Below, in pieces: positions 48,178 to 63,831 of a stretch of DNA of 64,000 nucleotides; the first letter of the stretch is position 1; each line of letters starts with the position of its first letter. The stretch covers positions 6,620-70,619 of the forward strand of contig JAWLCE010000006.1 of assembly GCA_041687335.1 (NCBI GenBank), read 5' to 3'. The notes under the pieces are model-generated. The model was not told the DNA's origin. It made no database searches and saw only the letters and a list, made by a program, of their open reading frames with translations. The translations under genes and the position numbers were made by a program. The stretch is from Sumerlaeia bacterium (GTDB taxonomy: Bacteria > Sumerlaeota > Sumerlaeia > MVZB01).

Positions 48178-49419
48178 ATGATCCGCTATGCACACCCCAG
48201 GATGGCCGCACCGATGATCGACCCCGCCCGCCCCAGCGCCGATGGCATTGTCCGCCACGGCTTCGGCCTCAAGAGCGAGGTCCAGGGCGAGCTGACCGCC
48301 GCCTATCACAGCGAGCTGGTCAGCCGCATCCGCGAGGCCGGCCACCGCTGGCAGATCGGCGCCATCGAGCTGCGCCTGGCCAAGGAATTCGGCTTCTGCT
48401 ACGGGGTCGACAAGGCGATCGACTTCGCCTATGAGACCCGCCGCCGTTTCCCCGACCGTCGCATCTTCCTGACCACTGAGATCATCCACAACCCGCGCGT
48501 CAACCAGCGCATGCTCGAGATGGACATCCGCTTCCTCGCCGGCCGCTATGCCGACGGCGCCTCGTTCGATGACCTGACCGCCGACGATATCGTCCTGCTG
48601 CCCGCCTTCGGCTTCGAGGTGGCCCAGCTCGAGCGCCTGCGCGCGATCGGCTGCCTGCTCGTCGACGGCACCTGCGGCTCCGTGGTGCACGTCTGGAAGC
48701 GCGTCGAGCGCTACGCCCGCGAGGGCTTCACCTCATTGATCCACGGCAAGTGGCGCCACGAGGAGACCATCGCCACCGTCTCGCATGTCACCGCCCAGGG
48801 CGGCCATTATCTGGTGGTCTTTGACCGCGAGGAGGCCGAGCGGGTCTGTGAATTCATCCGCAGCGGGCGCGGGGCGGCCGGGCTGGCCGCCGATTTTCGC
48901 CCGGCGCTCTCCGAGGGCTTCGACTTCGAGCGCCACCTGAAGCGCATCGGCGTCGCCAATCAGACGACGATGCTCTCCTCGGAGTCGCTCGAGATCGCGC
49001 GCATGATCGGCGCCGCGCTTCAGGAGCGTTGGGGCGCGGACCAGCTCAAGGAGCGCTTCCGCTCCTTCGACACGATCTGCAATGCCACCCAGGAACGCCA
49101 GGACGCGGTCATCGAGCTGATGGCCGACCCCCCCGACCTGATGCTGATCGTCGGCGGCTTCAACAGCTCCAACACCACCCACCTGCGCGAGATCGCCGAA
49201 CGCCACTGCCCGACCTACCACATCGAGGAAGTGGATGGCCTGATCTCGCCGACTCAGATTCGCCACAAGCCGGCCGCCGGCGAACCGCTCCTGAGCGAGG
49301 ACTGGCTGCCGACGCGCCGCCCGCTGGTCATCGGTCTGAGCGCCGGCGCCTCCACCCCCAACCGCGTCGTCGGCGAGGTCATCGAGCGGCTCGAGGCCTT
49401 CGAGTCCCGCTTGGGCTAG
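48178..49419 (+). CDS. ispH: 4-hydroxy-3-methylbut-2-enyl diphosphate reductase
   Basis: FGFCYGV, EIIHNP, DGTCG, HEET, NQTT, DTICNATQERQ, GGFNSSNT, AGASTP; start could be 48202 or 48214. Confidence 0.95.
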   Translation: MIRYAHPRMAAPMIDPARPSADGIVRHGFGLKSEVQGELTAAYHSELVSRIREAGHRWQIGAIELRLAKEFGFCYGVDKAIDFAYETRRRFPDRRIFLTTEIIHNPRVNQRMLEMDIRFLAGRYADGASFDDLTADDIVLLPAFGFEVAQLERLRAIGCLLVDGTCGSVVHVWKRVERYAREGFTSLIHGKWRHEETIATVSHVTAQGGHYLVVFDREEAERVCEFIRSGRGAAGLAADFRPALSEGFDFERHLKRIGVANQTTMLSSESLEIARMIGAALQERWGADQLKERFRSFDTICNATQERQDAVIELMADPPDLMLIVGGFNSSNTTHLREIAERHCPTYHIEEVDGLISPTQIRHKPAAGEPLLSEDWLPTRRPLVIGLSAGASTPNRVVGEVIERLEAFESRLG

Positions 49420-50519
49420 CTTACGGCGCCCTTGAACCAGTCGCTCAGGATGCGGACGATCCGCCCGGCGGCCTGGCCGTCCCACAGCGGCGGCACCTGC
49501 GCCTGGCCCGTGGCGGCCAGTGCGTCGCGGCAGCCGGCCAGGATCGCCTCGGTCGCCGTGCCCACCAGCCGGTTGCTCCCCAGCTCGGCCGTCACCGGGC
49601 GCTCGGTATTCTCGCGCAGCGTCAGGCAGGGCACCCCCAGGATCGTCGTCTCCTCCTGGATGCCGCCCGAGTCCGTCAGCACGATCCTCGCCTCCGCCAT
49701 CAGCTTGAGGAAATCAAGGTAACCGACCGGGTCGATCAGCCGCATCCCCGGGATCGCCTCCAGCCGCTGCCAGTTGGGCGTCCCGCCCATGTTGTTGCGC
49801 GTGCGCGGGTGGACCGGGAAGATGATCGGCAGGTCGCGGCCGATCACCTCCAGCGCCGCCACGATCCGGCCAAAGACCTCGGCATCGTCGACGTTGGACG
49901 GCCGGTGCAGCGTCAGCACCCCGTAGCCGCCCGCCGTCAGGCCCAGCTCCTCGAGCACCAGCGAGCGGTCGGCCTTGGCCCGGTTGGCCAGCAGGGTGTC
50001 GATCATCACGTTGCCGACCAGGTGCACCCGCGCGGGGTCGACCCCCTCGCGCATCAGGTTGTCCACGCCGCTCTGCTCGGTGCAGAACAGGATGTCGCTG
50101 ATCGAGTCGGTCAGCAGGCGGTTGATCTCCTCGGGCATCGTGCGGTCGAAGCTGCGCAGCCCCGCCTCGACGTGGATCAGGCGGATGCCCAGCTTGACCG
50201 CCACCAGCCCGCAGGCGATGGTGGAGTTGACGTCGCCCACCACCAGCACCGCGTCGGGGCGCTCGCTCAGGCAGACCGGCTCGAAGGCCTTCATGATCTC
50301 GGCGGTGTTGACCGCGTGCGAGCCGCCGCCGACCCCCAGGTTGATGTCGGGGCGCGGGATGCCCAGCTCGCGAAAAAACAGGTCGCTCATCTTCTCGTCA
50401 TAGTGCTGGCCGGTGTGGACCAGCAGCGGGGTCAGCTCGCCGGCCTCGCGATAGGCCGCCATGATCGGGGCGATCTTCATGAAATTGGGCCGCGCGCCCA
50501 CGACGTTGATAATCTTCAT
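49416..50519 (-). CDS. wecB: UDP-N-acetylglucosamine 2-epimerase (non-hydrolysing)
   Basis: GARPNFMK, HTGQHYD, HVEAGLRS, PEEINR, TDSGGIQEE, TERP. Confidence 0.95.
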   Translation of the reverse strand: MKIINVVGARPNFMKIAPIMAAYREAGELTPLLVHTGQHYDEKMSDLFFRELGIPRPDINLGVGGGSHAVNTAEIMKAFEPVCLSERPDAVLVVGDVNSTIACGLVAVKLGIRLIHVEAGLRSFDRTMPEEINRLLTDSISDILFCTEQSGVDNLMREGVDPARVHLVGNVMIDTLLANRAKADRSLVLEELGLTAGGYGVLTLHRPSNVDDAEVFGRIVAALEVIGRDLPIIFPVHPRTRNNMGGTPNWQRLEAIPGMRLIDPVGYLDFLKLMAEARIVLTDSGGIQEETTILGVPCLTLRENTERPVTAELGSNRLVGTATEAILAGCRDALAATGQAQVPPLWDGQAAGRIVRILSDWFKGAVS

Positions 50520-50744
50520 CGTGATCAGTTTTCCTTTGTCGGCTTCAGGCTCATTCGCCGCCGGCGCGTGGGGCGGCACGGCGCGGGATTCCCCTGCTGA
50601 GTGTGAAAGGCGCTCCAATTTTCACCATGCCGGGTCGCGAAATCAAGGCGGAATCGCCCGGGCCGCCGGCGGGGGGATAACATCTTGCACTCGCTACCAA
50701 AGATCGCGGCAGGGAGGGTAGGTCGGCTCTTCGAGCCGACATTA

Positions 50745-51314: not shown

Positions 51315-52817
51315 ATGCCGCAATATCTGCAAAGCCCGACGGTTTGGTTGCTTTTTGTTCTCAGCTTCGGCGCCACCTTCCTCCTGACGCCGCTGGTGAT
51401 CAGGCTGGCGCGCCGGATCGGCGCCGTCGACGTCGGCGGCCACCGCAAGGTCTATCAGGGCAATCCGATGCCGCTGCTGGGCGGGCTCGCCGTGGGGCTG
51501 CCCTTCCTCTTGATCTGCCTCTTCGGCGCCCTGGAGCTGACCGGCATGTTCGAGCTGGTCGGCCACAAAAGCCAGGGCTTCATCGCGATGGGTCTGGCCG
51601 GCGGCATCATCCTCGGGCTGGGCGTCTTCGACGACCTCTACGGCCTGCAGGCCTCAAGCAAGTTTCTCGGCCAGATCCTCGCCGCGATGGTGATCTGCTT
51701 CTCCGGCCACGCCATCCGCGCCATCGAAATCCCGGGCATCGGCCTGTTTCAGCTCGACCACTCGGTCGGGATCGCCGTGACGGTCCTCTGGATCGTCGGC
51801 GTGACCAACGCCTTCAACCTGATCGATGGCATCGATGGGCTGGCCGCGGGGCTGGGCCTGATCGCCGCGCTGGGGCTGGCGGCCGTGGGGATTCTGACCG
51901 GCGGGACCGTGGCGGTGCTGCTGTCGGTGGCCTTGGCGGGCAGCCTGCTCGCCTTCCTGTTCTTCAACTTCAACCCGGCCCGCATCTTCCTCGGTGATAC
52001 AGGCAGCATGTTTATCGGCTTCATGCTGGCCAACATCTCGCTGCTCAGTTCGCTCAAGGCTTCCGGCTCGATCATCTTCCTGGTGCCGGTGGTGCTCATC
52101 CTCAGCCTGCCGCTGCTCGATACCTCGACCTCGATGATCCGGCGCTACCTGCGCGGCCGGCCGATCTTCAGCGGCGACCAGAACCACATCCACCACCGCC
52201 TGCTGCGCAAGGGCTACTCTCACCGGCAGGTCGCGCTGACCCTCTACGGCGTCGCCGCGCTGATGGGCACCATGGCGATCGTGATCAGTCTGGCGCAGGG
52301 GAGCGTCTGGCGGATCGCCGGGCTGGCCGGCTACGTCGCCTGCGCCATGGGGCTCATCTGGCTCTCGGACTACATGCGGCCGACCCAGGCGATCCAGCTG
52401 GCGATGTCGCGCCGGCGCAACCAAATGTTCACCGCCTTCGCCAAGTATGCCGCCATCCGGCTGTCCAGCCAGTTGGTCGACTCCGACGTCTCGCCGCGCG
52501 AGATCCTCTGGCTCATGTGTCGCGAGCTGAACCTGCGCTGGCTCGAAATCCGCTACACCGACGGCCAGCTGATCGCGCGCGCCCACAACGATGAGCTGGT
52601 CGAGCAGGAATCCCAGCCCGACGAGCAATACAGCATGAGCGTGCACGTTCGCGGCCAGCAGAAGCTGATCCTCTGCTTCCGCCCGCTGCGCCCCCTGGAC
52701 GAATATGCCCGCCACGACGTCCAGGCCTGCCTGGGCAACATCTTCGAGCAGACCCGGCTCTCCCTGCCGAGCCTGATCAGCAACCTGCAGTTGACCCGCC
52801 AGGAAAACGAGGCCTGA
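51315..52817 (+). CDS. wecA: Undecaprenyl-phosphate GlcNAc-1-phosphate transferase (WecA/TagO, MraY family) with a C-terminal soluble extension
   Basis: PLLGGLA, GVFDD, NAFNLIDGIDGLA, FLGDTGS, DQNHIHHRL. Confidence 0.9.
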   Translation: MPQYLQSPTVWLLFVLSFGATFLLTPLVIRLARRIGAVDVGGHRKVYQGNPMPLLGGLAVGLPFLLICLFGALELTGMFELVGHKSQGFIAMGLAGGIILGLGVFDDLYGLQASSKFLGQILAAMVICFSGHAIRAIEIPGIGLFQLDHSVGIAVTVLWIVGVTNAFNLIDGIDGLAAGLGLIAALGLAAVGILTGGTVAVLLSVALAGSLLAFLFFNFNPARIFLGDTGSMFIGFMLANISLLSSLKASGSIIFLVPVVLILSLPLLDTSTSMIRRYLRGRPIFSGDQNHIHHRLLRKGYSHRQVALTLYGVAALMGTMAIVISLAQGSVWRIAGLAGYVACAMGLIWLSDYMRPTQAIQLAMSRRRNQMFTAFAKYAAIRLSSQLVDSDVSPREILWLMCRELNLRWLEIRYTDGQLIARAHNDELVEQESQPDEQYSMSVHVRGQQKLILCFRPLRPLDEYARHDVQACLGNIFEQTRLSLPSLISNLQLTRQENEA

Positions 52818-52848
52818 CCCCTTTCCCAGTCCTCGCCACCCCGGCGGA

Positions 52849-52890
52849 TGCGGGCGTTCGGGATGACCCCCCGGACGCCCACATTTTTTT
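52849..52890 (+). terminator. Rho-independent terminator
   Basis: gggcgttcggg...cccggacgccc followed by acattttttt. Confidence 0.7.
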
Positions 52891-52975
52891 GTGATCCGCA
52901 AAAAATCGGTTTCCGTTTCGCCGCCGACGGTATAAAAGGGTGATAGGAAGTGAGCCCGATCCAAGGACGGCGATC

Positions 52976-53347
52976 ATGCTGATGATTACGGCCGCGTTCC
53001 TTTTCCTCCGCTGGTCCCGCCGGCATGGAAGCCCCGCGCGCCGCCGTGCGTGCGATTCGGCGATCGCCTACCTCCAGCAGCAGTTGCCGGCGCTCGATTC
53101 CCCCCGGCGGCGTGAGATCTTCCAGTGGGTCGCGCGCGCCGAGCTGGGCGTCCAGCTGCTCGAAGTCTGCGACCAGCAGGGCCGCCCGCTCGTGGCGTTC
53201 GCGCCCGAGGCCGGCGGTGCCCCCGACTGGTCCGACGTGCTTTACCTGCGCACGCGCGATGGCCGCTCGCTCGGGGTTCGCTTCCTCCCCTGCGCCCCCC
53301 AGCCCAGCCACCTTCACACGCTCCACCGGATTTTCTCGCAGATGTGA
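52976..53347 (+). CDS. Small protein resembling the WecA C-terminal extension
   Basis: N-terminal hydrophobic segment plus RWSRR; SPRRREIFQWVARAELGVQLLEVCDQQGRPL aligns by eye with SPREILWLMCRELNLRWLEIRYTDGQLI of WecA. Confidence 0.65.
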   Translation: MLMITAAFLFLRWSRRHGSPARRRACDSAIAYLQQQLPALDSPRRREIFQWVARAELGVQLLEVCDQQGRPLVAFAPEAGGAPDWSDVLYLRTRDGRSLGVRFLPCAPQPSHLHTLHRIFSQM

Positions 53348-53381
53348 TGCCCCCGACCGCCGCAGGCCGGGCGCGACCCCC

Positions 53382-54470
53382 TCAGGGCTGCGCGGCCAGC
53401 GGCCTCGCATAAATCCCCAGGTGGTTCCCCACCGGCGACTGGCGGCCGAGCAGGCCGGCGTTGATCGGGCTGTTGACCGCCCGCGCGCGCCCGCCCTGGC
53501 CGGCCATGACCATCGTCGAGCTGTCGCCCCCGTCCAGGTTGATGAAGCTGTCGCCGCCCAGCTCCAGCAGCATCTCGGCCACCTCGGCCATCGTCGCCCC
53601 CACGCTATAATTGGGCTGATAGCCGTCCACCACGATCAGGATCAGCACGTTGCGGTCACGGTCGAGCGCGGCGGCCGTGCGCGGCAGCCGCGGCTCGCCC
53701 GCCCGCTCGAGCGCGCGCAGGGGATCCAGTTCCCAGCCGCTGACGGCCTGATAATCGGTCAGCTCCCGGCCGATGCGGACCTGGTTGTCGGCGTCGATCG
53801 CGATCGTGATCGGGGCGCCCTCGGACCGGACGGGGGAGGAATAGGTCTCGCCGCGTGAGGCGGCATAGCCCTGGACGTCGACCGGGTCGCCCGAGCGCGG
53901 ATACGGCCGCAGCGGACTGCTGTTGTCGGTCGGGGAAAAGGGCGCGGCATTGATCGCCAGCTGCAGACCGTGGCGCTCGAGGAACTCCGCCGCCGTCCGC
54001 GCCGTCGTCTCGTAACCGGGCTGGGGCTCGGGCGGGGTGACGAGGAAGCCGATGCCGGGTGCGTCCAGCTCAATCTCGATCACGTGCGCCACCTGGGGTG
54101 GGTGCGGCCGAACCCGCCGCGTGTAGCAGACCCCCTCAAAGATGTGCCCGCTCACCGGCGGCGGCTGGGGGCGCTGATAAAGCACGATGAAGTAGCCCGC
54201 CCCCGCAAAGGTGGCCAGCGCCGGCAGCGCCAATAGCGGGGCCAGCGCGAGCAGGACGCCCCGCACCCAGCGCCGCCGCGCGCGCCAGGCCGCCAGCACC
54301 ACCAGCAGCACCGGCACCAGCAGCAACGACCCCAGCCCCGCCAGCCGCCCGATCACGTGCACCTCGCGCTCGAGGAATTCGCTCGAATCCTTGATCCCGG
54401 CAAGCCAGGGCAGCAGGGCGAGTAAATGATCCATTCCCGGTGCAGCCTTTCGCCAATGATCTAACCACAT
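53382..54470 (-). CDS. Phosphodiester glycosidase (NAGPA-like) family membrane protein
   Basis: LAINAAPF, PRTAAA, IVVDG, INLDGGDSSTM, VGNHLGI; N-terminal TM segments; start uncertain. Confidence 0.82.
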   Translation of the reverse strand: MWLDHWRKAAPGMDHLLALLPWLAGIKDSSEFLEREVHVIGRLAGLGSLLLVPVLLVVLAAWRARRRWVRGVLLALAPLLALPALATFAGAGYFIVLYQRPQPPPVSGHIFEGVCYTRRVRPHPPQVAHVIEIELDAPGIGFLVTPPEPQPGYETTARTAAEFLERHGLQLAINAAPFSPTDNSSPLRPYPRSGDPVDVQGYAASRGETYSSPVRSEGAPITIAIDADNQVRIGRELTDYQAVSGWELDPLRALERAGEPRLPRTAAALDRDRNVLILIVVDGYQPNYSVGATMAEVAEMLLELGGDSFINLDGGDSSTMVMAGQGGRARAVNSPINAGLLGRQSPVGNHLGIYARPLAAQP

Positions 54471-54587
54471 CCCCCCGCCCCCCCGCGAGAATCAAGCGTG
54501 GGCCGAAAGGTGGCCAGGGCGAATCGCTCCGGAGCAATCGGCACTCCTTTGCCAGAGCTCCTTCGCTTGGCCCCTTCGAGGCCTGGA

Positions 54588-55019
54588 GTATGTGTTGAGC
54601 GACATCTGCCGACCCGTTGATCCTCCGGATGTCCTTGTCCAAGCCATGGAACAGATCGATACCTTGCCGTTTTTGCCGGCCACATAAGCCCCGGCAGGGG
54701 CGAAACATCACTAGCCCCGGGCGTGAGCCCGGGGTTAGGTGCCTGTGATTTCCAGAAGCCCCGGCAGGGGCGACACTTTGTTCGAGAGCAGCCAGGCGCT
54801 TTGCGAGATTTTCTTATGCCGCTGTGCTCAAGGCCACCGCATCAGCACCGCTGGAAACCAAAGCCGCGGCAGCGGCGAAATATGGTAGCCCCGTGCGTGA
54901 GCGCGGGGTTGGCGTGCCCCCTCCCCCCCTAAGCCGCGGTAGCGGCGACACAGTCTTGCTGCGCAAATTTGGGTCCGGCAGCCGTGACGTGTATGGCCAC
55001 CGCCTCGCTCAACACATAC
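54588..55019. repeat. REP cluster (aagcc[c/g]cgg[c/t]ag[g/c]ggcga x4) bracketed by a perfect 15-bp inverted repeat
   Basis: GTATGTGTTGAGCGA (54588) / TCGCTCAACACATAC (55005); palindromic units at 54686, 54756, 54861 and 54931. Confidence 0.65.
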
Positions 55020-55494
55020 GGCCCTTGATGTCTGGGCATTGGACCGGGGGGCCTTCGGAGCAAGGTGGTCAGCCCAATTTGGGTGATCTTGGCACCTTGG
55101 CGCTTTGGCGTGAACCATGATCCTTTCGTGGTTTCGTGCCCTGGACCAAACTTGCAATTGACCCCTCAGTATAAAAATGTATGCTGATGGCATGACGGTT
55201 CCAGGATGGAACGTAAACCCAGCGGCACCTGATTTAACAAGTTTTTGATTGTTCCCGGACATTACGGTCCAGAACTTGCGGCTCAAGGTTTCGCCCGGCA
55301 GGGCTTTGCCTCGGCAAAGCGAATGATTGCAATCATGTAGTGTGGAGCGGGGGTTGGACGGGGCCGCGGGGGATTGAACTGGCCTGCACACTCAGCGCTT
55401 CATTTATGCAAACATTGTTCACTTTTGGCGGGCGCAAGCCGCAGGCGGTTCCTCCCGCGGGTGGGAAAACAGCAAACTTGAGGTCACGGCACCG

Positions 55495-56436
55495 TTGAGC
55501 ATTCAGGAAACACAGTCCCCGCCCGCGCCCCACCAGCTCCGGTTTCAATACCGGGCCTACGGATTGGGGATCGAGTCCAACTTCGAGCTGGCCGAGCTCG
55601 ACAGCCGGCCGGGGCCGGTCGAGGTGACGATCCGGCAGCGGCTGACCACCCCGCCCCACGACCCGGCCGGGCAGCAGGGCTTCCTGCGCTTCGACCGCGA
55701 GGAGATCACCTACGTCTGCCAGCCGGTCGGGGTCTTCCGCCTCAGCGCGGGGCGGATGATCGAGTTCTGGCTGACCCCCGGCGTGGAACAGGATTTCGTG
55801 CGCTACTTCCTGATCGGTAACCTGATGGCGATGCTGCTCCACCAGCGTGGCCGATTGGTGCTGCACGCCAGCTGCGTCGGCGTGGGCGAGCAGGGCGCCA
55901 TCGCGTTTGTCGGCCAGTCCGGGGCGGGCAAGTCCACGATCGCGGCGGCCTTCGACGCCGCTGGTCACCCGATCATCTCCGATGACATCGCGGCGGTCGA
56001 CCTCGAGCGCGGGCTGGAGGTGCCCACCGGCTACTCCTTCTTCAAGATCGCGCCGGCGGCGGCCGACGCATTGGGCTTCGACGCGGCTCAGTTGACCTAT
56101 CTGCACACTCACGAGCCGCACAAGAAGGGGCTGGTGATCCGCAACCAAGCCGAGGCCGACCGCCCGCGCCGCCTGCTGGGGATTTTTCTGCTGGCCATTG
56201 GCGAGGCCGACGAGCTGGCGCCGGTGCCCGCCCGCGAGGCGCTGCTCGCGCTGCTCCAGCACACCTTCCCGACCCGGCTCAACCAGCGCGATGATGGGCA
56301 GCAGCTCCGGCAGTTGGCGGCGCTGGTGGGCCGTGTGTCGATCTATCAGTTCCAGCGCCCGCCGGGGCTCGACAAGCTGGATCTGCAGGTGGAGCGCATC
56401 CTCTCGATTGTTCGGCCGGAGCAACGGCATCAGTAA
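55495..56436 (+). CDS. HPr-kinase-like P-loop kinase (lasso peptide kinase type; TTG start)
   Basis: YRAYGLGIES N-terminus, LHASCV, GQSGAGKST, ISDD; directly upstream of the lasso cyclase. Confidence 0.85.
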   Translation: MSIQETQSPPAPHQLRFQYRAYGLGIESNFELAELDSRPGPVEVTIRQRLTTPPHDPAGQQGFLRFDREEITYVCQPVGVFRLSAGRMIEFWLTPGVEQDFVRYFLIGNLMAMLLHQRGRLVLHASCVGVGEQGAIAFVGQSGAGKSTIAAAFDAAGHPIISDDIAAVDLERGLEVPTGYSFFKIAPAAADALGFDAAQLTYLHTHEPHKKGLVIRNQAEADRPRRLLGIFLLAIGEADELAPVPAREALLALLQHTFPTRLNQRDDGQQLRQLAALVGRVSIYQFQRPPGLDKLDLQVERILSIVRPEQRHQ

Positions 56437-56500
56437 TGCCATTGAATGAAAGGCTGCCACTACCTATGACGGGGGCTGGCGAACACGCAAGGGATCAGGC

Positions 56501-58378
56501 ATGGGGCAGTTTACGATAAATTTCTCCGTCAGGGGCGACCGAGCGCGGGCTTCGGGGCATCGTGCCCCCGCCCATGCCGTCCCGCCCGCCCTTGGCTGGA
56601 CGGACGACTGCTGCGTCATCCACTGGCAGCCGTCTGAATGGGAGCGGCATGATCGATTGGCGCATGGTTTCCACAAGACCAGGGGATATGTGGTTGCTGC
56701 CGACGTGCGACTGGACCAGCGGCAGGAGCTTGTTGATCTGCTGGGTGAAGGGCGCAGGGGTGACGAGATCAGTGATGGCGAGCTGATCGGGATGGCTTGG
56801 GAGAAGTGGGCCTCAGATTTTCCGACGCGGCTGACGGGCGACTTTTCGATCGTGATTTATGATCGCATCCGCCGCGCCATCATCTGCGCGCGTGATCACA
56901 TGGCTATCCGTCCACTGTATTACAGCCTGGATTCTGACCGGCTGCTGGTCGGCTCGAGCATGGACTGCATTCTCTCTGGGATGGCGGAGACGCCCGAGCT
57001 GAGCGAGCACTATCTGGCTGATTACTCCAGGCTTGATTTCTCTAATCGGACGCGGACGATCTACAAGACAATTCAACGGTTGCCGGGCGGTTACATGCTT
57101 CAATTTGATGGAGAACGCATTGAGCGGCGTGACTACTGGCAGCCCGACTTGAGCGAGTTGGGTTTGAAGTCGGATGGGGACTATGTCGAGCTGATGCGCG
57201 AGAGCTTCGCGATGGCGGTTCGTGACCGACTCAGGGGCAATTCCCGTGTCGGCGGCGAAATGAGTGGCGGCCTGGACAGCTCGTCCGTCGCCTGCATGGC
57301 TCATCGCCAATTGGTTGGCGAGGGCCGGGAAAGTTTTTGGGCCTATGGTGCGGTTTTTCCCCAGCGCAGCCTGACGCACCGGCGAATTGACGAGCGGGAA
57401 TACCAGCAGGCCATCGCCGACCATACCGGGATGATTTACCGGCCGCTGGACATGGATGGACTCGAACCGATGGTCGAGTGTCTGTGGAACGGGAGTACCC
57501 CAATTGTCGCCATCAATACATATATTGATATTCACATTGCACAACAGGCTCGAATGGATGGGGTTGATTGCCTGCTGACCGGTTACGATGGGGACTCGGT
57601 GCTATCACATGGTTATGAATTGCTCAATCACCTGCTGCTGCGCGGTCGATGGGTGAGGCTGCTCGAGGAGGCGCGGCAGTTATCGCGCCACAAGGGTCGT
57701 GGCCGCAAGGTTTGGCTTTATCAATTTGCTTTGCGCCCCAGCCTGCCAGAGGTGATTGCGAACCGGCTGGACTGCTGGTTGATGGGGCGGCAACCGAAGG
57801 CTCCGCACTATGGCAACCCATTGTTGCAGTCGCTGGAAGATGAGCTAGATAATGACTCCGCACCGAGGCAGCTTAAGGGCGCGCAGGGACATTTCTACGG
57901 GCTGCGGGGGGGGCTGCTGGGCTTGGCGGTGGAATCCCTGCGCCAGCTCGGCGATCAGTTCGGGGTGCAGTATCTATTCCCTTTCTTTGACCGGCGCCTG
58001 ATTGAGCTTAGTCTGCGGATACCGCTGCGGCTGCGATTAAACAGGGGCTTGGACCGCCACCTGTTCCGTCAGGCGATGCAAGGCATTGTTCCCGACGTGG
58101 TGCGCCTGCGACCTGGCAAGGCGGATTTGAGCTCGAACTTTTTATTTCATCTTAACCTGCATAAAGATGCCTTTTTGTCCTCGGTTTCCGGTGTTGACAA
58201 CTTCATGAAATCGATATTTGACACCCACCGTCTGGCAGAGGACACGCGCAGGGCGGCAGGAACGAGTGAAAAAACATATATCGCGCTCCACATGGCGGCC
58301 CTGCTGGGCAAATGGTTCGAAAAGCAAAAATTTGGACGAACGGGGAATGGCGTCCTACTCCAGACAGAAAGGAGGTGA
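56501..58378 (+). CDS. Lasso peptide cyclase (C protein, asparagine-synthetase-like)
   Basis: ADVRLDQRQEL, GDFSIVIYD, ARDHMAIRPLYY, MSGGLDSSSV, LTGYDGD, PFFDRRLIE; no N-terminal Cys of AsnB; followed by a precursor. Confidence 0.85.
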   Translation: MGQFTINFSVRGDRARASGHRAPAHAVPPALGWTDDCCVIHWQPSEWERHDRLAHGFHKTRGYVVAADVRLDQRQELVDLLGEGRRGDEISDGELIGMAWEKWASDFPTRLTGDFSIVIYDRIRRAIICARDHMAIRPLYYSLDSDRLLVGSSMDCILSGMAETPELSEHYLADYSRLDFSNRTRTIYKTIQRLPGGYMLQFDGERIERRDYWQPDLSELGLKSDGDYVELMRESFAMAVRDRLRGNSRVGGEMSGGLDSSSVACMAHRQLVGEGRESFWAYGAVFPQRSLTHRRIDEREYQQAIADHTGMIYRPLDMDGLEPMVECLWNGSTPIVAINTYIDIHIAQQARMDGVDCLLTGYDGDSVLSHGYELLNHLLLRGRWVRLLEEARQLSRHKGRGRKVWLYQFALRPSLPEVIANRLDCWLMGRQPKAPHYGNPLLQSLEDELDNDSAPRQLKGAQGHFYGLRGGLLGLAVESLRQLGDQFGVQYLFPFFDRRLIELSLRIPLRLRLNRGLDRHLFRQAMQGIVPDVVRLRPGKADLSSNFLFHLNLHKDAFLSSVSGVDNFMKSIFDTHRLAEDTRRAAGTSEKTYIALHMAALLGKWFEKQKFGRTGNGVLLQTERR

Positions 58379-58382
58379 TTAC

Positions 58383-58520
58383 ATGAAAAAATGGACTAAG
58401 CCGACGTTGCAGAAGCATGGCAAAATGGAAGATCTGACGTTACGGACAAGCAATAACAAGGACTTTGGATCAGATGACGGCCTGACCTTTCAGGGGCAGC
58501 CTGTTGACTACACGAGCTGA
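58383..58520 (+). CDS. Lasso peptide precursor, 45 aa: MKKWTKPTLQKHGKMEDLTLRTSNNKDFGSDDGLTFQGQPVDYTS
   Basis: Strong SD AAAGGAGGTGA; leader WxxPxLxxxGxxxxxT RRE-binding motif; Asp-containing core; C-terminal Ser. Confidence 0.88.
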   Translation: MKKWTKPTLQKHGKMEDLTLRTSNNKDFGSDDGLTFQGQPVDYTS

Positions 58521-58524
58521 TTCA

Positions 58525-58596
58525 AAGTCCTGAAGTAGGCAAAAACAGGAGAAACCCCCGTTCGTCCAAATGTTTTTGCCGGTTGCAGGACGACTT
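58525..58596 (+). terminator. Long hairpin directly after the precursor (terminator or mRNA-stabilising stem)
   Basis: gtcctg...ggcaaaaaca pairs with tgtttttgcc...caggac. Confidence 0.5.
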
Positions 58597-58919
58597 CAAT
58601 TTTTTGCGGGGTGGTCACGAGAAGGAAGATGGGCAACACCTCTGCTGGAAGTGGCAGGGTTTCGCGATCAAAAAATGATCGCCGAGCATCAACCATTCGT
58701 TCATGCTTTGGTGGTCATTGAATCCGGCCGCACGATGCAACCCATCAGTGGCGTGCCGGGGAGATTAACAAGGGGGGCTGGTTTTGAAGTCTCCCGTGGG
58801 CTGGAATGTTCTGGGCACCGACCGGAGGAGGTCGTCAGGCTCACCCCCGGCAGTTCGCCGCCCCCTTCGGGGCGCCCTGTTATGTCGTGTCTCATCAGGC
58901 GCCAAAAGGTTTGGAGTGA

Positions 58920-59933
58920 ATGGCAGAGCAGTGCCCGGCAGTCGCGGTTGAAGGGGTGACCAAGGTCTTCCGGCCGCCGTTTCAGCGGCTGCGGCGGCTG
59001 CTGCGGCGGCGGGCGCGGCCGGTGAAGGCGCTCGACGGCGTCGATCTCGCCATCCCGCGCGGTGAGATCTTTGGCCTCGTCGGGCGCAACGGCCAGGGCA
59101 AGACCACCCTCATTAAAAGCATCGCCAGCCTGATCGAGCCCACCGCCGGCGCCATCCGCGTCTTTGGCCACGACACCCGGCGCGACAGCTACGAGGTCAA
59201 GCGCCGGGTGGGGCTGGTCAGCGCCGACGAGCGCAGCTTCTATGGCCGCCTGACCGGCTGGCAGAACCTGATGTTCTTCGCCCGGCTCAATGCGATGGCC
59301 CCCGCCAAAACCGCCCGCCAGGTGGCCGAGCTCGCCGACTGGCTCGAGTTCACCCCTAACCTGCACCGCAAGTTCCACGAATACTCGACCGGCAACAAGC
59401 AGCGCCTCGCGATCCTGCGCGCGCTGATGACCAACGCCGAGCTGATCCTGCTCGACGAGCCGACGCGCAGCCTCGACCCGATCTCGGCCGACGAGCTGCG
59501 CCGGCTGATCCGCGACAAGCTCAACGCCGAGCAGGGCAAGACGATCCTCATCACGACCCACAACCTGCAGGAGGTCGAGGACCTCTGCGGCCGGGTCGGC
59601 ATCATCAGCCAGGGCCGCATCCGCCGCTGCGCGCTGATGGCCGACCTGAAGCGCAGCCACGGCGCACGCGAGCGGGTCCGCCTCCGGGTGCGCGGCCTGG
59701 CCGAGCCCGCCTCCCTCGCGCTCCGGGTGCCCGAGGCCGAGGGGCTTGTCTGGCAACCGCTCGAGGAGGGCCGGCTCGAAATCGGCTTCACCCGCCAGGG
59801 CGGCGACGATGTCCTGCACCGGATGCTGACAGCGCTGGTGGCGCTGGGCGGCGAGATCGAGAGCTGCGAGAGCCGCCGCGACGGCCTGCGCGAGATCATG
59901 GACCTGGTCGAGGCGGGGGAGGCGGCGTCATGA
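58920..59933 (+). CDS. ABC-2 type transporter ATP-binding subunit
   Basis: GRNGQGKTT, YSTGNKQR, LLDEPT, TTHNL. Confidence 0.92.
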   Translation: MAEQCPAVAVEGVTKVFRPPFQRLRRLLRRRARPVKALDGVDLAIPRGEIFGLVGRNGQGKTTLIKSIASLIEPTAGAIRVFGHDTRRDSYEVKRRVGLVSADERSFYGRLTGWQNLMFFARLNAMAPAKTARQVAELADWLEFTPNLHRKFHEYSTGNKQRLAILRALMTNAELILLDEPTRSLDPISADELRRLIRDKLNAEQGKTILITTHNLQEVEDLCGRVGIISQGRIRRCALMADLKRSHGARERVRLRVRGLAEPASLALRVPEAEGLVWQPLEEGRLEIGFTRQGGDDVLHRMLTALVALGGEIESCESRRDGLREIMDLVEAGEAAS

Positions 59934-60733
59934 TGCGCGTAATCCGGGTGATGCAGGCCTTCCTTTATCGCGACGCGCTGATGGCGACCAGCTATCGGCT
60001 GGCCTTCGTCATGCAGGTGGCCTCGCTGGGGCTGTCGGTGGTCTCGCTCTATTTCATGTCGCGGCTGGTCGGCGCGCGCCCCGAGATCGACCAGTATGGC
60101 GGCTATCTGCCCTTCGCCGTCGTGGGGATGGCGATGGCCGGCTTCCTCACGACCGGCTTCAGCAGCCTGTCCGGGGCCATCCGTTCCGAACAGATGATGG
60201 GCACCCTGGAGTCGGTGCTGATGACGCCGGCGCGGCTGCCCTGGATCGTGATCGCCTCGAGCCTCTGGAGCTTCATCTGGGCGATTTTGACGGCGGCGGC
60301 GACGCTGGGGGCGGCCTGGCTCTTCTTCGGCATCGAGTTCCGCGGCAACCTGCTGATGGCCGCGGCGTTGGTCGCGCTGACGACGCTGACCTTCAGCTGT
60401 TTGGGCATCCTTTCAGCCAGCTTCATCATGGTCTTCAAGCGCGGCGACCCGCTCGCCTTCCTGACCGGCTCGCTCTCCTACCTGCTGGGGGGCGTCTTCT
60501 ACCCGATCTCGATCCTGCCGGTGTGGATGCAGAAGCTGTCCAACCTGTTGCCGATCAAGCATGGGCTGGAGGGCCTGCGCGACGTCCTGCTGGTGGGTCG
60601 CCCCGCCGCCGAGGTGGTGCCCCAATTGCTGATTCTGCTGCTCTTCTGCGCCATCGGCCTGCCGCTGAGCCTGCTCTGCTTCCGCTGGGCCGTCAGCATC
60701 GCCCAACGCGAAGGCAGCCTCCTGCATTATTGA
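59930..60733 (+). CDS. ABC-2 type transporter permease
   Basis: Six TM segments, EQMMGTLE, GGVFYPISILPVW; ATGA-coupled to the ATPase. Confidence 0.92.
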   Translation: MMRVIRVMQAFLYRDALMATSYRLAFVMQVASLGLSVVSLYFMSRLVGARPEIDQYGGYLPFAVVGMAMAGFLTTGFSSLSGAIRSEQMMGTLESVLMTPARLPWIVIASSLWSFIWAILTAAATLGAAWLFFGIEFRGNLLMAAALVALTTLTFSCLGILSASFIMVFKRGDPLAFLTGSLSYLLGGVFYPISILPVWMQKLSNLLPIKHGLEGLRDVLLVGRPAAEVVPQLLILLLFCAIGLPLSLLCFRWAVSIAQREGSLLHY

Positions 60734-60764
60734 TGGGCGTCCATTCGTGACCGCCTAAAATCTT

Positions 60765-61150
60765 CTCATTTTCGTGTCAATTCTCCTCATTTGGTGTGCA
60801 TTCGTGATCGTATGGACCCGGTCTGCCCTGCCCCTCTGCCGTCCTCACTTTCGTGTCCATTCCTCCCCCATTCGTGTCCATTCGTGCCCGCCTCGGAATC
60901 ACATCCGGCCCCAAAAAACTCTGCGTTGCCTCTGCGCCCTCTGCGACTTTGCGGTTCAACTCCCATCCCGCCGTCCTCATTTTCGTGTCAATTCCTCCCC
61001 ATTCGTGTCCATTCGTGAACGCCTTGAATCCGATCTACTCTGCCTCCCCCGCACCCAGACCACCCTCCAGTCCTGCCGTCCTCATTTTCGTGTTAATTCC
61101 TCCCCCTTTCGTGACCATTCGTGAACGTATGAATCCGACCTACCCTGCCC
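60765..61150. repeat. Four copies of a ~50-75 bp non-palindromic ttcgtg-rich repeat
   Basis: gccgtcctcattttcgtgtcaattcctccccattcgtgtccattcgtgaac-type units at ~60765, 60838, 60970 and 61075; interleaved ctctgcg repeat at ~60919-60958. Confidence 0.8.
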
Positions 61151-61854
61151 CCCCCCGCCCTCCGCTCATAATTTGGTTGCTTCCAGCGGAGCTCTAAATT
61201 ATCTTTCAGCCGATGAAGTTTCCGATCAAGCCGGCCCGCCCCGCCGCCGAAGCGTTCTATAACGCCTTCAGCCGCCGCGCGCGGCCTACGCAAGGAGGAT
61301 CAACGGGCGGCAGGAAGCCGCAGATGAGCTGGGCGCAATGATGCAGCCGGCTGCAAAGATGCTGAAGACCCTTGCATCCGATTGCAGTTTGGCCGCCGCC
61401 GCGCCGCTCGTCGCCGGTAAGTTATACCTTTCAAATTGAGAATTTTCGGCTGCCCGAGTGTTTTTTGAGAAAACTGCCAATGCGTTTTAAATTGGCATCC
61501 TGATTGCTTAGGTAGCCTTGGGCTCAGGTTTCCCCCGACCCCCGATCGGCCCCCCGGCCGCCGCTGGAGCCAGGGTTTGGCCGCGGCGGGGGCACGGAAA
61601 AACCCCGAGCCGTGCCCCGTGCGACTGAACGAACCGGCCGACCCTGGGACCCCCGCGCGACCCGCGCCGCCCCCCCCGGCCCCCCCAGCCGGAGCAGCGC
61701 TGAACCCTCCGGCCCCCATCGCCCCACCACCCCCCGGCGCGAAGCATCCCCCTTCGCCGCATGGGCGAAGCCTGAGCTATTTTTGGACATCCTGCCCAAA
61801 ACCAGTTGAATCAATGCCTGAACAAGCCATCAAGTATCCGAGAGGCGTTGCGCC

Positions 61855-62781
61855 ATGATCCGTAAGGGCATCATCCTGGCCGGTGGCGCGGGGAGTCGCC
61901 TCTACCCCCTGACGCTGGTGGCCAGCAAGCAGCTCCAGGCTGTCTATGACAAGCCGATGATCTACTACCCGCTGACCACGCTGATGCTGGGCGGGGTCCG
62001 TGAGTTCTGCCTGATCTCGACGCCGCACGATCTGCCGCGCTTTGAGGGCCTGCTCGGCGACGGCAGCCATTGGGGCCTGACCATCACCTACCGCGAGCAG
62101 CCCCACCCGGGCGGGCTGGCGCAGGCTTACCTCATCGCCGAGGATTTCATCGCCGGCGAGCCCGTCTCGATGATCCTGGGCGACAACGTCTTCCATGGCC
62201 TGTTCAATTTCCGGCGCATCTTCGGCCAGTTCACGCGCGGCGGCCATGTCTTTGCCTACCCCGTCAATGATCCCGAGCGCTATGGCGTGGTGGAGTTCGA
62301 TTCCACCGGGCGTGCGATCTCGGTTGAGGAGAAGCCGAGTAAGCCCAGATCGCGCTATGCGATTCCTGGGCTCTACCTGTTCGACGGCCGTGTGGCCTCG
62401 GTCTGCCGCGGCATCAAGCCCTCGCCGCGGGGCGAGCTCGAGATCACCGAGGTCATCAAGCATTACCTTGAGCTGGATGAGCTGACGGTCTCGGTGCTTG
62501 GCCGCGGGTTTGCCTGGCTCGATACCGGCACCAGCAGCAGCCTCAAGGAGGCCAGCGACTTCATCGCGCTGGTCGAGGCCCGCCAGAGCCTCAAGATCGG
62601 CTGCCCCGAAGAAGTCGCCCGCCGCATGGGTTTCATCAGCCAGCCGGCGTTCGAGACCTTGGTCGGGGGAATGCCCAACTGTGCTTATGCCGACTACCTG
62701 CGTGAGCTGGTGCGTGAGCTGGCTGAACTGGGCGCAGGCAATATGCCGGCCTTGCCCGCCGAAACGGAGTCCCTGATATGA
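61855..62781 (+). CDS. rfbA: Glucose-1-phosphate thymidylyltransferase
   Basis: KGIILAGGAGSRLYP, YDKPMIYYPL, LGDN, EEKP, RGELEIT, WLDTGT. Confidence 0.96.
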   Translation: MIRKGIILAGGAGSRLYPLTLVASKQLQAVYDKPMIYYPLTTLMLGGVREFCLISTPHDLPRFEGLLGDGSHWGLTITYREQPHPGGLAQAYLIAEDFIAGEPVSMILGDNVFHGLFNFRRIFGQFTRGGHVFAYPVNDPERYGVVEFDSTGRAISVEEKPSKPRSRYAIPGLYLFDGRVASVCRGIKPSPRGELEITEVIKHYLELDELTVSVLGRGFAWLDTGTSSSLKEASDFIALVEARQSLKIGCPEEVARRMGFISQPAFETLVGGMPNCAYADYLRELVRELAELGAGNMPALPAETESLI

Positions 62782-62899
62782 TCAAGCCATTGACAAACCG
62801 ATCCTCGTGACGCGGCCCTTCCTGCCGCTGCTCAAGGAATTCCAGCAGGCGCCGGCCAGAATCCAAATGATTGCCAGATGGGGGAAAGGGCGCAGCTAA
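62778..62899 (+). pseudogene. Frameshifted, truncated 5' remnant of a VioA-like DegT-family aminotransferase
   Basis: ATGA overlap with rfbA gives MIKP. After a 1-nt shift the frame reads DKPILVTRPFLPLLKEFQ, like VioA-type N-termini, and ends at TAATG overlapping the next start. Confidence 0.6.
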
Positions 62900-63831
62900 T
62901 GGAGACGATAACAAACTATTTTCACCCCCAGGCAATTGTTGAAGATGGTGCATCCATTGGGGAGAACACTCGCGTCTGGGCCTATGCCCATATCTTGCCC
63001 GGCGCCGTGATCGGCAGGGATTGCAACATCTGCGATCAGGTCTTCATCGAGAATGATGTGGTGGTTGGCAACCGGGTGACGATCAAATGCGGCGTGCAGC
63101 TGTGGGACGGCGTGCGACTGGAAGATGATGTGTTCGTGGGGCCGAACGCCACTTTCACCAACGACCGGTTCCCGCGCAGCAAGCAATATCCCGATGCCTT
63201 CACCAAGACAGTGGTCAGTGTGGGCGCGTCGATCGGCGCGAATGCGACGATCCTGCCCGGCTTGAAGATCGGGCGCGGGGCGATGGTGGGGGCCGGCGCC
63301 GTGGTGACCCGTGACGTGCCGCCCAACGCGATTGTAGTGGGAAACCCAGCCAGGATCACCGGCTATGTTGATGCGCCCTCCAAGCCGACGATTGCAGAGA
63401 GTCGCGATAGCAAGTGTGTGTCATCGTCTGTGGATGGGGTGGTGATCCGGGAAATCCAGCATGTCAAGGACCTGCGGGGAGACATTTCCGTCGCGGAAGT
63501 GCTGAAGGATATTCCCTTCGACCCACGGCGCATTTTTTTCGTCTATAATGTTCCCGATTCTCGGATACGCGGAGAGCATGCCCACAAAACGCTGCACGAA
63601 CTGCTCGTTTGCGTTCAGGGTTCCATATCTGTTGTGGTGGATGATGGCAGAAAAAGGGAGGAATTCCGACTCGACCGTCCTTGGATCAGCCTCTACATCC
63701 CTCCACGCGTGTGGAGGATTCACTATAAGTATTCACGGGATGCTATTCTGGCGGTCGCCGCTTCGCATGAATATGATTGCTCAGACTATATACGCGATTA
63801 CAACGAGTTCCTGGAGCTTGTGCGGCGATGA
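62899..63831 (+). CDS. WxcM-like bifunctional N-acetyltransferase (hexapeptide repeats) / dTDP-4-keto-6-deoxyglucose 3,4-isomerase (FdtA/QdtA cupin)
   Basis: Hexapeptide repeats with FTNDRFPRS and VVGNPAR; C-terminal DLRGDI, RGEHAHK, YIRDY. Confidence 0.9.
   Translation: METITNYFHPQAIVEDGASIGENTRVWAYAHILPGAVIGRDCNICDQVFIENDVVVGNRVTIKCGVQLWDGVRLEDDVFVGPNATFTNDRFPRSKQYPDAFTKTVVSVGASIGANATILPGLKIGRGAMVGAGAVVTRDVPPNAIVVGNPARITGYVDAPSKPTIAESRDSKCVSSSVDGVVIREIQHVKDLRGDISVAEVLKDIPFDPRRIFFVYNVPDSRIRGEHAHKTLHELLVCVQGSISVVVDDGRKREEFRLDRPWISLYIPPRVWRIHYKYSRDAILAVAASHEYDCSDYIRDYNEFLELVRR

Follow-up and report, generated by a model that had tools for sequence, protein, structure and literature searches.

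A predicted kinase-type lasso peptide cassette without its own B1 and B2 genes in a Sumerlaeia genome

The stretch of DNA analysed here (hereafter the window) comprises 64,000 nucleotides (nt) of a Sumerlaeia genome (G000), on a contig designated C6 that is cited in its own contig coordinates. At 55495-60733, the window carries a compact set of five genes in the order kinase, lasso cyclase, precursor, ABC transporter ATPase and ABC-2 permease (K-C-A-ABC-ABC2), embedded in a surface polysaccharide region. This locus raises the question of whether such a small gene set, which lacks the B1 and B2 genes found in most related clusters, could direct the synthesis of a lasso peptide, how the leader would be removed and the ring closed, and whether the surrounding sugar genes contribute to the product. 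The locus appears to be a real, intact-looking lasso cassette of the kinase-bearing type, a general type that is already known, and its host represents an uncultured lineage. Open reading frames (ORFs) were called from the letters of the window and families were assigned by Pfam and NCBIfam profile searches; all five reading frames are intact.

55495-56436, forward strand: HprK-like lasso peptide kinase (K); 313 amino acids (aa); TTG start codon with GAGG 11 nt upstream
56501-58378, forward strand: Asn-synthetase-like lasso cyclase (C); 625 aa; starts MGQF, with no Cys2; SGGLDSS PP-loop
58383-58520, forward strand: precursor (A); 45 aa, MKKWTKPTLQKHGKMEDLTLRTSNNKDFGSDDGLTFQGQPVDYTS; begins 4 nt past the cyclase stop
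58920-59933, forward strand: DrrA-like ABC transporter ATPase; 337 aa; ABC_tran 8.7e-31, drrA subfamily 198 bits
59930-60733, forward strand: ABC-2 permease; 267 aa; ABC2_membrane 9.5e-19; start overlaps the ATPase stop

The kinase, the cyclase without Cys2, the 45-aa ORF with a strong Shine-Dalgarno sequence and the ABC-2 exporter had all been proposed in an initial annotation of this DNA, and each of them was found in its place. The precursor ORF is preceded by the ribosome-binding site AGGAGG, 7 nt ahead of the ATG, and encodes a leader with W4, P7, L9, G13 and T19, followed by a core with K26, D27, D31 and D32 and a C-terminal S45 (...DYTS). A gap of about 400 base pairs (bp) separates the precursor from the ABC ATPase gene. 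Two further candidates for genes, a 129-aa ORF at 58570-58959 and the ORFs in 60774-61719, have no Pfam match, show low GC content at third codon positions (GC3) or are built of repeats, and were treated as non-coding.

The identity of the Asn-synthetase-like gene is the first point to be established. In a sugar locus, such a gene could encode a polysaccharide amidotransferase, with the small ORF next to it arising by chance, and the protein indeed shows a weak match to the XrtA/PEP-CTERM amidotransferase model (109 bits). However, the best NCBIfam model is that of the lasso cyclase (NF033535, 345 bits, E 8.9e-103), ahead of Asn synthase (163 bits), and the protein, whose Pfam matches are Asn_synthase (6.9e-33) and, in the GATase-like N-terminal part, GATase_7 (1.3e-17), lacks the Cys2 nucleophile. 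Of 48 alignment columns with at least 90% conservation in 119 relatives, the predicted cyclase retains 43, and its named relatives carry lasso cyclase annotation.

The genomic context of the relatives is equally informative. The cyclase was aligned with relatives from kin genomes, and the scan took one genome per species; a pattern scan yielded 599 matching stretches, 582 of which encode a cyclase relative, and all locus counts given here refer to the best 80 loci of these 582. The 80 loci span many phyla, including Chloroflexota, Cyanobacteria, Acidobacteriota, Rokubacteria, Mesorhizobium and Methanobacteriaceae. All of them hold a cyclase relative and, when scored by tblastn with the proteins of the window genome, 69 hold a kinase, 66 B1, 58 B2 and 56 all three, the usual order being B1-B2-C-A-K followed by an ABC gene. 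In 70 of the 80 loci, one or more precursors with the leader pattern [YWF]xxPx[LIVMF]x3Gx5T are encoded no more than 3 kb from the cyclase, 83 precursors altogether. In a six-frame translation of the 4.45-Mb window genome, with fewer than 80 residues from the pattern to the stop, the same pattern occurs 16 times, and three of these occurrences adjoin the three lasso-type cyclase genes of this genome; the leader of the window precursor thus appears to be more than a chance match. The model ranking, the locus context and the precursor counts refute the interpretation as an amidotransferase next to a chance ORF, to which we assign a negligible probability. The initial annotation had singled out a cyclase that groups with polysaccharide amidotransferases and has homologues without an adjacent precursor as evidence against itself; the opposite was found, and the lasso interpretation therefore stands.

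The kinase supports the same assignment. Lasso kinases, for which a His-Lys-Asp-Asp motif is essential, transfer phosphate to the C-terminal Ser of the still linear precursor (PMC9266682, also the source of the motif used here); the corresponding residues of the window kinase, H124, K146, D163 and D164, are invariant in all 67 aligned kinases. Against Pfam Hpr_kinase_C, the protein gives a weak P-loop match (E 6.5e-4). Its AlphaFold 2 model (mean predicted local distance difference test score, pLDDT, 86; predicted template modelling score 0.86) has a PEPCK-like P-loop kinase fold and best matches PEPCK-type P-loop kinases (E 1.2e-9, TM-score 0.61), and HPr kinase is not among the 50 matches listed. 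A sequence search of solved structures returned no structure of a lasso cyclase or lasso kinase, only Asn synthetases plus PEPCK or HprK at E > 0.1. Together, the family context, the His-Lys-Asp-Asp motif and the ...DYTS terminus agree with the earlier assignment of the locus to the kinase-bearing, paeninodin-type lasso clusters with a Ser-ended precursor. The suggestion that the host belongs to a poorly studied lineage is borne out as well: the closest named relatives of the IspH protein encoded in the window come from metagenome-assembled genomes of Candidatus Sumerlaeia, Sumerlaeota or Sumerlaeaceae (60-72% identity), and a full-text literature search returned no description of a Sumerlaeota lasso peptide.

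We lean, with moderate confidence, towards a self-contained K-C-A-ABC-ABC2 cassette for a C-terminally phosphorylated lasso peptide of the paeninodin/SyanK kind. The precursor would be translated from its strong ribosome-binding site right after the cyclase gene, and the HprK-like kinase would phosphorylate Ser45 of the linear precursor. The leader would be cut by enzymes encoded outside the cassette, the candidates being C6:98354-98665 (B1) and C36:50899-51393 (B2), and the cyclase would adenylate an Asp side chain and close the ring. The DrrAB-like ABC-2 pair would export the product or protect the producer.

The most conspicuous feature of the cassette is the absence of B1, the leader-binding recognition element (RRE), a PqqD-like domain (PF05402), and of B2, the transglutaminase-like protease (PF13471). 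Six-frame searches of 53000-62000 with hidden Markov models built from the proteins of the relatives detected no B1 or B2 gene or remnant (best E 1.3, 3.4 bits), and no remnants were found in the 400-bp gap after the precursor or in the upstream spacer. The cognate B1 and B2 that the initial annotation had taken for granted are accordingly not part of the cassette. In the genome as a whole, which encodes three pairs of cyclase and precursor, two kinases, a single B1 and an isolated B2, six-frame Pfam searches identified one B2 domain (C36:51021-51338) and two PqqD domains, which lie on C6 but outside the window (C6:98368-98568 and C6:102379-102573). The only B1 gene (C6:98354-98665) lies 31 kb downstream of the cassette, beside two further cyclases. 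The only B2 gene (C36:50899-51393; L004:12899-13393) matches NF033537 with 87.7 bits and is located about 170 bp from the end of its contig; type II/IV secretion genes and a stretch with a tRNA-like-looking translation precede it, and no other lasso gene is nearby.

The second lasso locus (C6:98-109 kb) encodes, in addition to this B1, two cyclases that start with M-A-G-I, the second kinase and two divergently placed precursors with YxxP leaders that do not end in Ser. It also includes a 395-aa protein with a C-terminal PqqD domain and an N-terminal phosphoribosyltransferase-like motif, read from the sequence with no Pfam match. Taken over its wider extent (L005, C6:92986-109070), the locus also includes a PF14907 gene and lies beside a Wzz/tyrosine-kinase gene and a NusG-like gene.

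A complex of this B1 with the window precursor received weak support in structure prediction (score 0.57 versus 0.00 for the best control), with runs agreeing in at least 95% of contacts and a partner pLDDT of at least 52. The mark used is reached by 58 of 80 solved complexes and two of 110 mismatched pairs; with scores of up to 0.60, it is reached by only seven of the 80 solved complexes and by both passing mismatches. Moreover, RRE-leader complexes have already been solved, and therefore the positive prediction may reproduce known structures. The sequence affinities point in another direction. Among the 12 best matches of the window cyclase, 10 belong to clusters with Lys-type precursors (the WxxP/Lys group). 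The B1 of this genome as a displaced partner of the cassette is unsupported, its nearest relatives being mostly from YxxP-type clusters.

Several observations weigh against the cassette as a complete, functional pathway of the kind outlined above. The B1 and B2 of this genome most resemble those of YxxP-type clusters, Lys-type clusters accounting for only one of the 12 best matches of each. In Bacillota, the residue at the W/Y position of the leader motif is the main determinant of RRE choice, with FusB1 nevertheless binding non-cognate leaders, according to PMC13381572; given this discrimination and the YxxP subtype of both proteins, their service in trans is doubtful. The cyclase, with 345 bits, stays below the curated cutoff of NF033535 (525), and its closest counterpart in a collection of 5.8 billion proteins is only 37% identical. 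The kinase matches TIGR04352 (HprK-related kinase A of the HPr-rel-A system) in the P-loop region only, with 35.8 bits and a cutoff of 200. Among the precursors of kinase-bearing loci, 38 of 80 end in Ser, and 36 of 67 loci have at least one such precursor; the C-terminal Ser rule for kinase-type precursors is looser than reviews state. Finally, the assembly consists of 74 contigs and has an estimated contamination of 3.43%.

The same absence could mean that the cassette is an incomplete remnant that yields no lasso peptide and, at most, a linear phosphopeptide; indeed, linear phosphorylated peptides made with lasso-type parts are known (PMC13381572). Such decay would be in line with the lack of local B1 and B2, the different subtype of the copies elsewhere in the genome and the situation in the kin genomes. 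Among 40 such genomes, a cyclase relative better than E 1e-50 is present only in G004, G015 and G037; the same-genus genomes G001 and G002 contain no close cyclase, no kinase and no match to PF13471 or PF05402, and the permease orthologue in G005 carries an internal stop (TAG). Nevertheless, the five reading frames of the window cassette are undisturbed, the kinase and the cyclase retain their catalytic residues, the precursor has a strong ribosome-binding site, and the cyclase-precursor pair looks recently acquired rather than decaying. We consider a remnant improbable.

Assuming a functional cassette, leader removal could proceed in three ways. The B1 and B2 encoded elsewhere in the genome might act in trans, which is doubtful for the reasons given above. 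Alternatively, host proteases might suffice, by analogy with pseudomycoidin, whose production from psmCAD in two hosts required neither B1 nor B2 (PMC6993621) and therefore provides a precedent for a set devoid of B genes. The third option is ring closure that does not need leader removal. The window precursor has a canonical leader, and the cluster is therefore not triculamin-type; clusters of that type are characterized by a follower and a truncated cyclase (PMC12070363). With its three cyclase/precursor pairs, one B1 and one B2, this genome constitutes a natural test of whether leader binding and protease can be shared across lasso pathways, a question raised by the work on W versus Y leader discrimination.

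The position of the ring is closely tied to the cleavage site. In the canonical register (as in PMC12070363), W4, P7, L9 and T19 correspond to positions -17, -14, -12 and -2 and the core begins at R21, which places D27 at core position 7, compatible with the rule of an Asp or Glu at core position 7, 8 or 9 (as given in PMC6993621). A cut after T19-L20 could thus give a 7-residue R21-D27 ring. When the precursor is aligned with its relatives, cleavage behind T22-S23 is favoured instead, with a 9-residue ring from N24 to D32. The window core aligns with a subgroup that shares the block xxKx(F/L)GxxDG(F/L)xF and has 0-3 extra residues between the leader T-x and this block; the three extra residues of the window peptide, R-T-S, recreate a Thr at -2 before N24, whereas the other members of the subgroup have no Thr there. 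Both cleavage sites, and the rings that would follow from them, are candidates.

The subgroup deviates from the rule in a systematic manner. In the canonical register, core positions 7-9 are devoid of Asp and Glu in 17 of the 83 precursors, mostly Lys-type ones. A K-x5-D arrangement is present in 21 of 84 cores compared with a mean of 4.8 in 500 shuffles (standard deviation 2.0, maximum 11), and the other K-to-D spacings (x2-x4 and x6-x10) occur in 1-7 of the 84 cores each. The Lys is mostly found at positions 2, 3, 4, 5 or 6 after the leader T-x, and at 14 and 27 in two cores, with the spacing to the Asp fixed. Lys-type precursors adjoin 10 of the 12 cyclases closest to that of the window but 8 of the 63 others. 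The related sequences are not independent, so both the K-x5-D enrichment and the association with cyclases are overstated by these figures. The textbook ring joins residue 1 to an acidic residue at 7-9, and a Lys-x5-Asp element whose distance from the leader varies is at odds with it. Two explanations are compatible with the pattern: cleavage may be shifted ahead of a 9-residue ring of constant size, or the ring may be formed on the Lys side chain.

According to the second alternative, the ring of the window peptide would be a 7-residue Lys-x5-Asp lactam between the side-chain amine of Lys26 and the side chain of Asp32, and would not involve the N-terminal amine. In addition to the constant spacing at variable distance, the lack of acidic residues at positions 7-9 in mostly Lys-type precursors and the association with particular cyclases, this proposal is consistent with the absence of a shared -2 residue before the xxK block, which argues against a shifted B2 cut. 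A change of ring size by one residue sharply lowers the yield (PMC13352647), and therefore rings of 10-12 residues are disfavoured as well. However, the sequences behind the enrichment are related, most Lys-type relatives retain B1 and B2 (L023, L025, L026, L028 and L030-L033), and most cases are explained by a Lys conserved as the third residue of an ordinary 9-residue ring, with T22-S23 of the window precursor fitting such a cut. In addition, the window peptide can form a normal R21-D27 ring, and the literature search found no lasso cyclase described as using a Lys side chain. We regard the Lys26-Asp32 ring as rather unlikely, and it seems similarly doubtful that the window cyclase is one of a set of cyclases, spread across phyla, that form a 7-residue Lys-Asp ring wherever the motif is located. 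If real, such a ring would not require prior leader removal, so that a cassette without B1 and B2 could be self-sufficient; cyclization independent of leader removal would explain how such a cassette works, and the product would represent a new topology, in which a Lys-Asp ring is placed between an N-terminal stub and a phosphorylated tail. The small size of the cassette would make it a convenient place to settle the ring chemistry.

Returning to the preferred interpretation, a phosphorylated lasso peptide of the paeninodin kind, the cassette shares with the clusters of paeninodin (Paenibacillus dendritiformis, PadeK), ThcoK and SyanK an HprK-like kinase with the His-Lys-Asp-Asp motif, a Ser-ended precursor with a WxxP leader, an Asn-synthetase-like cyclase and ABC export. 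It differs from them in the lack of B1 and B2, in the K-C-A order as opposed to the usual B1-B2-C-A-K-D of the relatives, in a two-gene ABC-2 exporter in place of a fused half-transporter, in a cyclase at most 37% identical to any known sequence and in its Sumerlaeota-like host. The pseudomycoidin cluster of Bacillus pseudomycoides (psmCAKB1B2ND) has a kinase that likewise acts on the C-terminal Ser; it encodes B1, B2 and the nucleotidyltransferase PsmN, none of which is present in the window cassette. The triculamin cluster (triA, triC, triD and triT; PMC12070363) is a lasso cluster that also lacks the RRE and the leader peptidase, but it has a follower and an N-terminally truncated cyclase, as opposed to the canonical leader and full-length 625-aa cyclase of the window. 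The lpp clusters of Bacillota (linear polyphosphorylated peptides; PMC13381572) combine a lasso-type leader with a kinase, and the question of W versus Y and RRE choice concerns them too; they have a signal-peptidase-like protease and no cyclase, whereas the window has a cyclase and no protease. The features that make the cassette unusual are the lack of B1 and B2, the gene order, the exporter and a core subgroup with an unclear ring rule. The precursor matched only itself in the collection of 5.8 billion proteins. A homologous ABC-2 permease adjoins lasso genes in just three of the 80 loci (L023, L059 and L087), one of which (L023) has the order B1-B2-C-A-A-K-ATPase-permease; therefore, an ATPase-permease pair of this kind can belong to a lasso cluster.

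Comparison with a genome of a different genus of the same family (G004) gives some indication of how the cassette might have been assembled. The contig G004:C343 (L022, L107) is syntenic with 51315-60733 of the window. It encodes a wecA orthologue (46-47% identical) and, 54 nt further on, a lasso cyclase, two precursors and a kinase (C-A-A-K), followed by a 753-aa protein of no known family and then by a second kinase, an ABC ATPase and an ABC-2 permease (35%, 52% and 62% identical to those of the window, respectively), with no cyclase or precursor between the second kinase and the ABC genes. Identity between the cyclases of G004 and the window is only 30%, and the cores are unrelated. Within the stretches read, no lasso genes adjoin the wecA orthologue in G001 or G002; the adjacency recurs only in one related genus, by synteny. 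In the window, GC3 is 0.68 in the cyclase gene compared with 0.89 in the kinase gene and 0.92-0.93 in the ABC genes. These observations can be read as pointing to one old locus shared by G000 and G004 (wecA ... K-ABC-ABC2), within which cyclase-precursor pairs have been exchanged; the C-A pair of the window looks like a cassette swapped in between an older kinase gene and the ABC genes.

The remaining part of the question concerns the polysaccharide genes. The wecB and wecA genes upstream and the rfbA and fdt-like genes downstream, reported in the initial annotation, were found by Pfam.

49416-50618, reverse strand: wecB-like gene (Epimerase_2, 2.3e-107)
51315-52817: wecA-like gene (Glycos_transf_4, 1.6e-39)
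61855-62781: rfbA (1.5e-59)
62878-63831: hexapeptide acyltransferase/FdtA-type isomerase fusion

Further downstream, there is a full polysaccharide locus that encodes a DegT aminotransferase, an RmlC-like epimerase, a fused ABC flippase-like protein, several glycosyltransferases, a pyruvyl transferase, a Wzy-like protein and a Wzz/tyrosine-kinase protein. Several genes of the sugar locus have GC3 of 0.39-0.52, compared with the value of about 0.9 typical of the genome, and in C6:75091-77787 (L006:5092-7788) an F420-dehydrogenase-beta-like Fe-S protein is encoded next to a polysaccharide pyruvyl transferase. Repeat clusters lie between the cassette and the sugar genes on both sides.

54590-55119: upstream boundary, a cluster of genome-wide repeats of the repetitive extragenic palindromic type, with blastn-short copies on 28 contigs
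54687-54734 and 54862-54908, reverse strand: repeat units that match Rfam RF01687 (Acido-Lenti-1), 33.9 bits and 37.4 bits, respectively (gathering 37)
60836-61155: downstream boundary, a repeat cluster between the permease gene and rfbA, with direct-repeat families D1-D3 and D5, copies on 20 contigs and ORFs without a Pfam match

These clusters insulate the cassette from the sugar genes. The two repeat units are the only Rfam matches over 54400-61900, with no riboswitch or leader RNA; the 'sRNA' family RF01687 may simply be a repeat element here.

The initial annotation had suggested that the phospho-lasso is glycosylated or linked to the envelope through the surrounding polysaccharide genes. 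In favour of a sugar-modified product, psmN-like genes add hexoses to the phospho-Ser of pseudomycoidin and reportedly occur commonly in lasso clusters (PMC6993621); a PF14907 nucleotidyltransferase gene is located on the same contig (C6:92986-94317, domain C6:93202-93957), 26 kb downstream beside a Wzz-like gene, with PF14907 also on C19; homologues of this gene are present in 40 of the 80 related lasso loci, and lasso genes adjoin the wecA orthologue in G004 as well. However, membership of PsmN in PF14907 is presumptive, and the adjacency to wecA in G000 and G004 represents one shared syntenic locus, not two events, and is absent in G001 and G002. Homologues of wecA, NAGPA, rfbA, wecB and fdt occur in 0, 0, 1, 4 and 4 of the 80 loci, respectively, so that the linkage to wecA, rfbA and fdt, on whose conservation the initial annotation had made its idea depend, is not conserved; the repeat clusters stand between the cassette and the sugar genes on either side, and 55495-60733 contains no psmN-like nucleotidyltransferase or glycosyltransferase gene. 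We consider modification or attachment by the neighbouring sugar genes very unlikely, and the idea of a sugar-decorated or envelope-linked lasso peptide ends in a negative result. The PF14907 gene keeps glycosylation alive at a low level, not tied to these neighbours, and the position in the polysaccharide region can be read as reflecting the history of the locus, not its function.

Finally, the precursor is bracketed by a predicted long-range RNA stem of about 20-25 bp.

58324-58348, forward strand: 5' arm, within the 3' end of the cyclase gene
58553-58580, forward strand: 3' arm, past the precursor stop; overlaps an alternative local hairpin at 58527-58591

The underlying inverted repeat (58326-58345/58556-58575) is 20 nt long and 95% complementary, its second arm beginning 36 nt after the precursor stop, and neither arm has a further copy in the genome. 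In the minimum-energy fold of 58315-58612, the repeat makes up the outer stem, and this stem encloses the ribosome-binding site and the whole precursor ORF; the fold has -93.1 kcal/mol compared with -76.2 +/- 4.9 in shuffles (z = -3.41), and none of 200 shuffles is as stable. A comparable bracket is found in none of 92 other precursors, whose longest complementary runs are 6-13 as opposed to 16 in the window, and therefore the stem is not a feature of the family. A scan for consensus promoters and terminators gave counts no higher than in shuffles. As judged from the predicted fold, the stem could mark the processing or stabilization of a separate precursor mRNA.

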